DNA of 64,000 bases from assembly GCF_030013595.1 (NCBI RefSeq), contig NZ_CP122768.1. One strand, written 5' to 3'. The notes under the pieces were generated by a model. The model searched no databases and was not told where the DNA came from. It saw only the letters and a program-made list of their open reading frames with translations. Source of the stretch: Escherichia coli (GTDB lineage Bacteria; Pseudomonadota; Gammaproteobacteria; Enterobacterales; Enterobacteriaceae). Each line of letters starts with the position of its first letter. The first letter of the stretch is position 1. A program made the position numbers and the translations under genes. Below are positions 22,030 through 22,133 of the stretch, one piece after another.

Positions 22030-22133
22030 CGGCGCATCCTGAATAATTTTTTACCACAGGATATGTAGGTATCTATTGACTATCAATGCGTACCTAAATA
22101 CTATGTATGCGTACCACATACAAAGGAGCAAAA
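22030..22133. promoter_or_regulatory. Divergent promoter/operator region between mnt-like and arc-like genes
   Basis: Intergenic region with direct repeat atgcgtacc (x2) and a partially palindromic ggta...tacc segment. Confidence 0.4.

Follow-up and report, generated by a model that had tools for sequence, protein, structure and literature searches.

In P22-like prophages the release of antirepressor is governed by immI modules, which form a second layer of phage immunity. The P22 module is ordered mnt / Pmnt-Pant / arc / sar / ant, and its annotated Pant (14793-14821) and Pmnt (14826→14798) lie on the same DNA on opposite strands, which makes them mutually exclusive. Its two palindromic operators are unrelated to each other, Oarc (ATGATAGAAGCACTCTACTAT) occupying the spacer of Pant and extending into its -10, and Omnt (AGGTCCACGGTGGACCT) spanning its start. 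Vershon, Sauer and colleagues reportedly found in 1987 that Mnt holds Pant off in the P22 lysogen while Pmnt stays active, and that Arc made from Pant after infection lowers both promoters. The region has been grouped among the variable "ant morons" of P22-like phages, and the CUS-3 type was described as apparently without arc, so that control of ant may differ there (Villafane et al. 2008, PMC2629481). A literature search did not find an operator description for the CUS-3-type immI.

The locus compared here lies in a 64-kb stretch of E. coli DNA (the window, meaning the whole stretch analysed) and constitutes the CUS-3-type immI module of a P22-like prophage (Table 1). Its gene order and orientation are those of P22 from the gene-16 homologue to the tailspike, with the divergent mnt and arc-ant units lying between the DNA-ejection gene (the gene-16 homologue) and a tailspike with a P22 head-binding domain (Pfam), in synteny with P22, CUS-3 and SEN22. 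Also as in P22, both repressors are ribbon-helix-helix proteins of the Arc/Mnt family, the antirepressor is of the P22 type, a sar-like RNA is predicted, and one operator-like element lies within the spacer of Pant and another across its start. PDB relatives of the two small proteins included 1mnt and Arc entries. The Mnt-like protein has an N-terminal ribbon-helix-helix domain with the beta-strand PQVNLRLP and a predicted C-terminal helix, and its best solved relative was P22 Mnt (1mnt, E=4.5e-5), matched over residues 8-48 only. Past residue 48 no sequence similarity to P22 Mnt was found, so that the C-terminal halves of the two proteins are unrelated in sequence; an AF2 monomer placed helices at residues 17-29, 36-48 and 57-79 with low confidence (pLDDT 61). 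In Mnt, a tetrameric repressor, two dimers are linked by a helical C-terminal domain. The Arc-like protein matched Pfam Arc PF03869 with 25.1 bits (cutoff 20.4), and its E. coli copies are named "Arc family DNA-binding protein" in RefSeq. Both proteins depart from their P22 counterparts, the Mnt-like beta-strand bearing the Q-N-R residues of Arc and the Arc-like protein having no N-terminal arm. The sar-like RNA occupies the position of P22 sar and matched the Rfam family over its full length (1-68; 29.3 bits, E=0.0055), under the gathering score of 43. The Psar-like promoter has the geometry annotated for Psar in P22, where the -10 stops 6 nt inside ant.

Table 1. Features of the immI module and its intergenic gap, in window coordinates
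Feature	Coordinates	Strand	Description
Mnt-like repressor gene	21778-22029	-	83 aa; Pfam Arc PF03869, E=3.1e-10, 40.2 bits
Intergenic gap	22030-22133		104 bp; bounded by the Mnt-like start at 22029 (minus) and the Arc-like start at 22134 (plus)
Conserved core	22058-22122		65 bp; both promoters and three operator-like sites; per-column conservation, 43 distinct sequences
Pmnt-like promoter	22058-22086	-	TTGATA-17-TATCCT, predicted start ~22051; promoter scan
18-nt imperfect inverted repeat	22062-22079 / 22083-22100		complementary at 14/18 positions
OU (putative site)	22065-22076		consensus GTAGGTATCTAT, degenerate first copy; in Pmnt spacer; contains GGTA
Pant-like promoter	22076-22104	+	TTGACT-17-TACTAT, predicted start ~22111; promoter scan
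O1 (putative site)	22086-22097		ATGCGTACCTAA; in Pant spacer, abuts Pmnt -35; repeat copy 1
Direct repeat ATGCGTACC	22086-22094 and 22107-22115		exact; start-to-start 21 bp
Inverted repeat	22101-22109 / 22117-22125		encloses the second ATGCGTACC copy
O2 (putative site)	22105-22121		17-bp palindrome GTATGCG-TAC-CACATAC; over predicted Pant start; contains repeat copy 22107-22115
Sequence considered as target for repressor dimers			ATGCGTACCTA
Shine-Dalgarno of arc-like gene	22122-22127		AAGGAG
Arc-like repressor gene	22134-22280	+	48 aa, MKVKTLRMP start; first gene of the ant operon
sar-like antisense RNA	22280-22346	-	opposite the ant ribosome-binding region; Rfam RF00262
ant, antirepressor	22347-23276	+	309 aa; P22_AR_N PF10547, E=7e-45; P22_AR_C PF10548, E=5e-30
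Psar-like promoter	22353-22381	-	TTGATA-17-TATACT with upstream TG, within first ant codons; scan, 10/12 matches

Three further features of this neighbourhood were observed. On the minus strand, orf105 (21464-21781) encodes 105 aa, and the N-terminus of its product resembles a signal peptide (MKRIAILLLLCLSSIANA). Its reading frame overlaps the stop codon of mnt by ATGA, so that Pmnt probably transcribes both genes together in the lysogen. The product matches PHROG 19844 (function unknown) with no Pfam match found, and orf105 is a candidate lysogenic-conversion gene. A terminator-like hairpin (CCTCAG...CTTGAGG followed by GTTTTTGT; 21988-22013, plus strand) lies within mnt, antisense to it and a short way upstream of Pant. 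It was rejected as a terminator, its T-run not being kept in relatives and its often-kept stem being dictated by the P-Q...L-R codons, and it is probably incidental. A 57-aa, in-frame extension of the arc-like gene (22107-22280, plus strand; MRTTYKGAK...) could start at the ATG contained in the second 9-mer. We take 22134 as the real arc-like start because it has a strong AAGGAG and the extension is absent from CUS-3-type loci.

An earlier note on this DNA had reported a direct repeat in the gap, and two exact copies of ATGCGTACC were indeed observed there. The partial palindrome it described as GGTA...TACC was likewise present, with GGTA (22068-22071) and TACC (22091-22094) falling within the 18-nt imperfect inverted repeat. 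Among 5000 dinucleotide-preserving shuffles of the 104-bp gap, an exact direct repeat of at least 9 nt was found in 82 and an 18-nt inverted repeat with at least 14 pairs in 23, and no shuffle (0/5000) attained the tandem identity of 16/21 over 21 nt. The window contains ATGCGTACC exactly three times, twice in the immI gap. The third exact copy (47070-47078, plus strand), distant from immI, is probably coincidental, with about 0.5 expected by chance per 64 kb on both strands. The two 9-mers proved to be the second and third copies of three direct TGCGTACC-type motifs, which we call OU, O1 and O2, and the GGTA...TACC pair forms the cores of OU and O1. The degenerate copy (OU) and the 17-bp palindrome around the second 9-mer had been absent from the earlier note.

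The promoter scan gave a Pant-like promoter that agrees with P22 Pant in spacer length and in where the -35 lies, and its hexamers were invariant or near-invariant among relatives. The Pmnt-like promoter was the sole minus-strand promoter match in the gap (22086→22058). Its -35 overlaps that of Pant by 1 bp, so that the two sigma-70 promoters stand back-to-back with predicted starts about 60 bp apart, where those of P22 share the same DNA, and the two have in common an invariant 12-bp block, TTGACTATCAAT (family form TTGAC(T)A(T/G)CAAT). The Pmnt -10 hexamer varied in relatives (TATCCT, TAACAT, TACCAT, TATTCT, TAATAT, TAATCT and TACTAT) but its distance to TTGATA was 17 bp throughout, and the positions fixed in TAnnnT (22063, 22062 and 22058) were invariant across the 43 distinct sequences. 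In a MAFFT alignment the annotated Pmnt hexamers of P22 aligned with the leftward promoter of the window. No P22-style, fully overlapping Pmnt was found on the minus strand in the scan of the gap, and by eye the hexamers at the P22-equivalent positions were poor. With respect to these promoters, repeat copy 1 falls inside the Pant spacer and copy 2 over the predicted Pant start.

Prophages of E. coli UMNF18 and of several ETEC strains carry this DNA at 100% identity, and 146 of the 5426 complete E. coli genomes have the region. Among isolated phages the intergenic region was common only to CUS-3 and SEN22, the closest phages (genus Lederbergvirus), with identities to the window of 91% and 86%, respectively. 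Their "ant moron" regions share the immI specificity type and the Mnt-like protein and retain all three sites, CUS-3 differing in an additional P22-type mnt behind the cognate one. We also collected three sets of relatives: 80 viral-contig loci with a Mnt-like relative, 80 viral-contig loci with an Arc-like relative, and three loci in genomes that represent their species (Yersinia pekkanenii, two loci; Chimaeribacter californicus, one). All collected loci had the three motif copies and the TTGAC(T)A(T/G)CAAT block. The 65-bp core was 80-98% identical where mnt third codon positions, taken from the ribbon-helix-helix domain and measured against the window, were 26-60% identical and synonymous sites are saturated. 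Except in the two closest loci, the left flank in the mnt 5'UTR had an identity of 17-40% and is randomised. In lineages with 26-50% identity at those codon positions and 17-40% in the flank, the core kept its 80-98% identity and was gapless. In two loci a lower core identity was due solely to 1-nt indels.

Spacing within the array was strictly kept. The OU-to-O1 distance was 21 bp in 52 of 52 distinct cores, and 48 of the 52, including those of Yersinia and Chimaeribacter, had a spacing of 21/21 bp, the second interval being 20 or 22 bp in the rest. A distance of 21 bp corresponds to two helical turns, which would place the sites on the same face of the DNA. Over the same 52 cores O1 and O2 each had a mean of 7.5 of 8 matches to TGCGTACC, where the background rate of at least 6 of 8 matches was 0.3% of positions. 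The consensus of the O2 motif was ATGCGTACCACA, and OU itself reads TGCGTACC in 16 of the 52 cores, including those of Yersinia and L094-96. The pentamer CGTAC was invariant or near-invariant in both O1 and O2. Position 22113, within O2, is one of three recurrent dyad centres across the family.

These observations bear on the proposal of the earlier note that the repeats are candidate Mnt and Arc operators controlling ant. Their position, the flanking genes and their conservation across genera are in favour of candidate operators; the implied division into one Mnt site and one Arc site fits poorly with the identical cores. Because the flanking genes are of the Arc/Mnt family, the repeats are placed on the promoters and the array is conserved across genera, the repeats are best read as candidate operators through which repressors control ant, and they are very likely binding sites of the prophage's two small repressors, judging from the sequence evidence. 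We consider it probable that the locus as a whole is a three-site promoter-operator region of the CUS-3-type immI, at which the repressors bind and a shared set of sites is read.

The identities of the genes, the promoter matches and the anatomy, phasing and conservation of the repeats are observed, and we infer repressor binding, site assignment and regulatory outcome. In the proposed scheme Pant would drive the arc-like gene, ant and the tailspike rightward, and Pmnt would drive the mnt-like gene and orf105 leftward. The ribbon-helix-helix repressors would bind OU, O1 and O2, with occupation of O1 and O2 shutting Pant, and hence ant, and occupation of OU shutting Pmnt. The motif copies stand at positions where a protein bound to them would obstruct RNA polymerase. 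In the lysogen the shared sites would most likely be read by the Mnt-like protein, and after infection the Arc-like protein may act at the same or overlapping sites. A shared set is favoured over two unrelated operators because the O1 and O2 cores are identical, because the array keeps its strict two-turn phasing, and because in the third immI type of locus L009 both the Mnt and Arc homologues carry the beta-strand PLGIRIP while two copies of CACGGTGTAG at a distance of 21 bp, around the -10 of Pant, occupy the same promoter positions.

A narrower form of this reading, in which the Mnt-like and Arc-like proteins read one 21-bp-phased three-site operator and their differing orders of preference set the ant switch, is offered as a tentative possibility. 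Some points weigh against a shared set of sites in either form. The different beta-strands of the two proteins (PQVNLRLP with Q-N-R in the Mnt-like, KVKTLRMP with V-T-R in the Arc-like) argue against an identical specificity, and the palindromic arms GTATG...CATAC of O2, absent from O1, could make O2 a distinct operator. The 21-bp gap also exceeds the reach of the dimer-dimer contacts in the P22 Arc-operator structure, which counts against shared sites. If the narrower form is true, the locus would hold a switch like that of lambda CI and Cro at OR, unlike the two unrelated operators on fully overlapping promoters in P22, and, with the same layout in the third immI type, a shared operator would be the commoner immI design. 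The likeness to lambda OR1-OR2-OR3, between PRM and PR, is a functional analogy only: each system places three related sites between divergent promoters, where two repressors that prefer different sites could read them, such shared reading being presumed here. The lambda proteins have a helix-turn-helix fold, whereas the repressors here are of the ribbon-helix-helix fold and the sites are direct repeats at 21-bp spacing.

A different assignment would follow P22 more closely, with the O2 palindrome as the operator of the Mnt-like protein, O1 and its mirror OU as an Arc-like operator shutting both promoters, and the common 9-mer as a by-product of shared ancestry or of a pseudo-palindromic GTAC core. 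We regard this as rather unlikely, although several features of the locus fit it. Measured from Pant, O1 corresponds in position to Oarc (within the spacer and into the -10) and O2 to Omnt (across the start), as such an assignment would have it; measured from Pmnt, the Oarc and Omnt positions fall to OU and O1, respectively. Symmetric 7-bp arms occur in O2 alone and are perfect in some lineages (GTATGCG/CGCATAC in L004, L006 and L054), and the beta-strand residues differ between the two proteins. OU and O1 are mirrored about the shared -35 block at 14 of 18 positions, an arrangement that would let one protein repress both promoters like Arc in P22, but this mirror symmetry is a trait of the E. 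coli and Salmonella lineages and not of the family, since OU is a direct, not an inverted, copy in Yersinia, L094-96 and others. The 9-10 bp core of O1 and O2 is identical in nearly all lineages, whereas P22 Oarc and Omnt share nothing, and where P22 has two unrelated palindromes this locus has three phased copies of one motif.

The alignment with the P22 operators suggested in the earlier note did not bring out operator sequence similarity. A search of the window that allowed up to 3 mismatches found neither Oarc nor Omnt, and in the MAFFT alignment of the gap with P22 the similarity was at the promoter level only. The absence of the P22 operator sequences indicates a different immunity specificity.

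Variation among the repressors was also compared with the DNA. Three Arc beta-strand types (KTLRMP, SSVRFP and VSVRMP) occurred with an unchanged core, and base changes specific to type A, B or C were not found among the relatives, so that the DNA carries no covariation signal for Arc. O1 and OU being unaltered when the Arc strand type changes also speaks against reserving them for the Arc-like protein. Among the relatives no covariation was seen between O2 variants and variants of the Mnt N-terminal arm. In a profile scan of genomes and viral contigs for Arc type A, each of the 83 loci had both a Mnt with the strand PQVNLR(L/M)P and the 65-bp core, and none of these 83 was a natural recombinant parting the Arc-like from the Mnt-like gene; by these pairings the immI module is inherited as a unit.

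It is very improbable that the repeats are not bound by protein at all, the conservation being explained by the promoters alone and the 9-mer by chance or as a relic of a 21-bp duplication. The conserved core does coincide with the two promoters, and since their hexamers overlap it, promoter constraint explains part of the conservation; the exact 9-mer repeat is by itself only modestly unlikely in the shuffles given above. However, the conserved bases include spacer and post-start positions, so that conservation goes beyond what the promoters need, and positions free of promoter constraint (CGTAC in O1 and O2) are among the best conserved. O2 sits downstream of the -10, the spacing is held at 20-22 bp across genera, and the two flanking repressor genes require operators.

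A role of the palindrome at 22104-22122 at the RNA level, whether by forming a hairpin at the 5' end of the arc-ant mRNA or by terminating leftward transcription, can almost certainly be dismissed: a scan did flag a terminator-like minus-strand hairpin at 22122-22104, but its tail TAGTATTTAG is a poor T-run, the predicted Pant start falls within the loop so that the hairpin would be absent from the mRNA, and L074 and L076-78 swap the right arm yet retain local DNA palindromes (GTATGCATAC, ATACGTAT).

The locus is an uncharacterised specificity variant of the known P22 immI switch and no new kind of system. It combines back-to-back promoters with a three-copy phased array of putative operators, and its description is a modest, incremental advance that would not surprise a specialist. 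The specificity type is common, being found in UTI89/CUS-3-like and O104:H4 prophages and extending to Salmonella, Yersinia and Chimaeribacter. The 65-bp core with its three phased sites is a ready substrate for binding studies, and the locus offers a natural comparison of how one fold with one set of recognition residues (Q-N-R) would read different DNA.

We also observed, in CUS-3 itself (L001, 3346-3486), an unannotated 46-aa Arc-family ORF (MKVKTLRMPEKLEK...) right after the promoter and inside the "bsq2 boundary sequence". This divergent arc-family ORF runs counter to the published view that the CUS-3 type apparently lacks arc.

Some smaller motifs were noted around the sites. TAGG/TAGA boxes were present in OU and O1 and absent from O2; a reading of the Q-N-R strand through Arc TAGA boxes or P22 Omnt half-sites was suggestive only and was set aside. 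In L094-L096, which have the third Arc strand type (PVSVRMP), an extra GCATACA lies 10 bp past the right arm of O2 (CCACATACAAAAGCATACAAAGGAG), which hints that the GTATG/CATAC arm may be an independent binding unit.

Tandem mnt genes of differing specificity were observed in L001 (2710-2958 and 2982-3239), L009 (1289-1540 and 1558-1797) and L039. In L009 and L039 a window-type mnt stands behind the third immI type, with no cognate operator nearby. The tandem arrangement looks like stacked, trans-acting immunity against other immI types. Loci of the third immI type were seen at 1798-1905 in L009, where there is also an upstream palindrome (CTACACAGTGTAG), and at about 760-870 in L017 (S.Kent 1-2-1). 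A repeat similar to the CACGGTGTAG pair of L009, TAGTAGTACG, occurs twice, 17 bp apart, in Emek and N7, together with a P22-type Arc.
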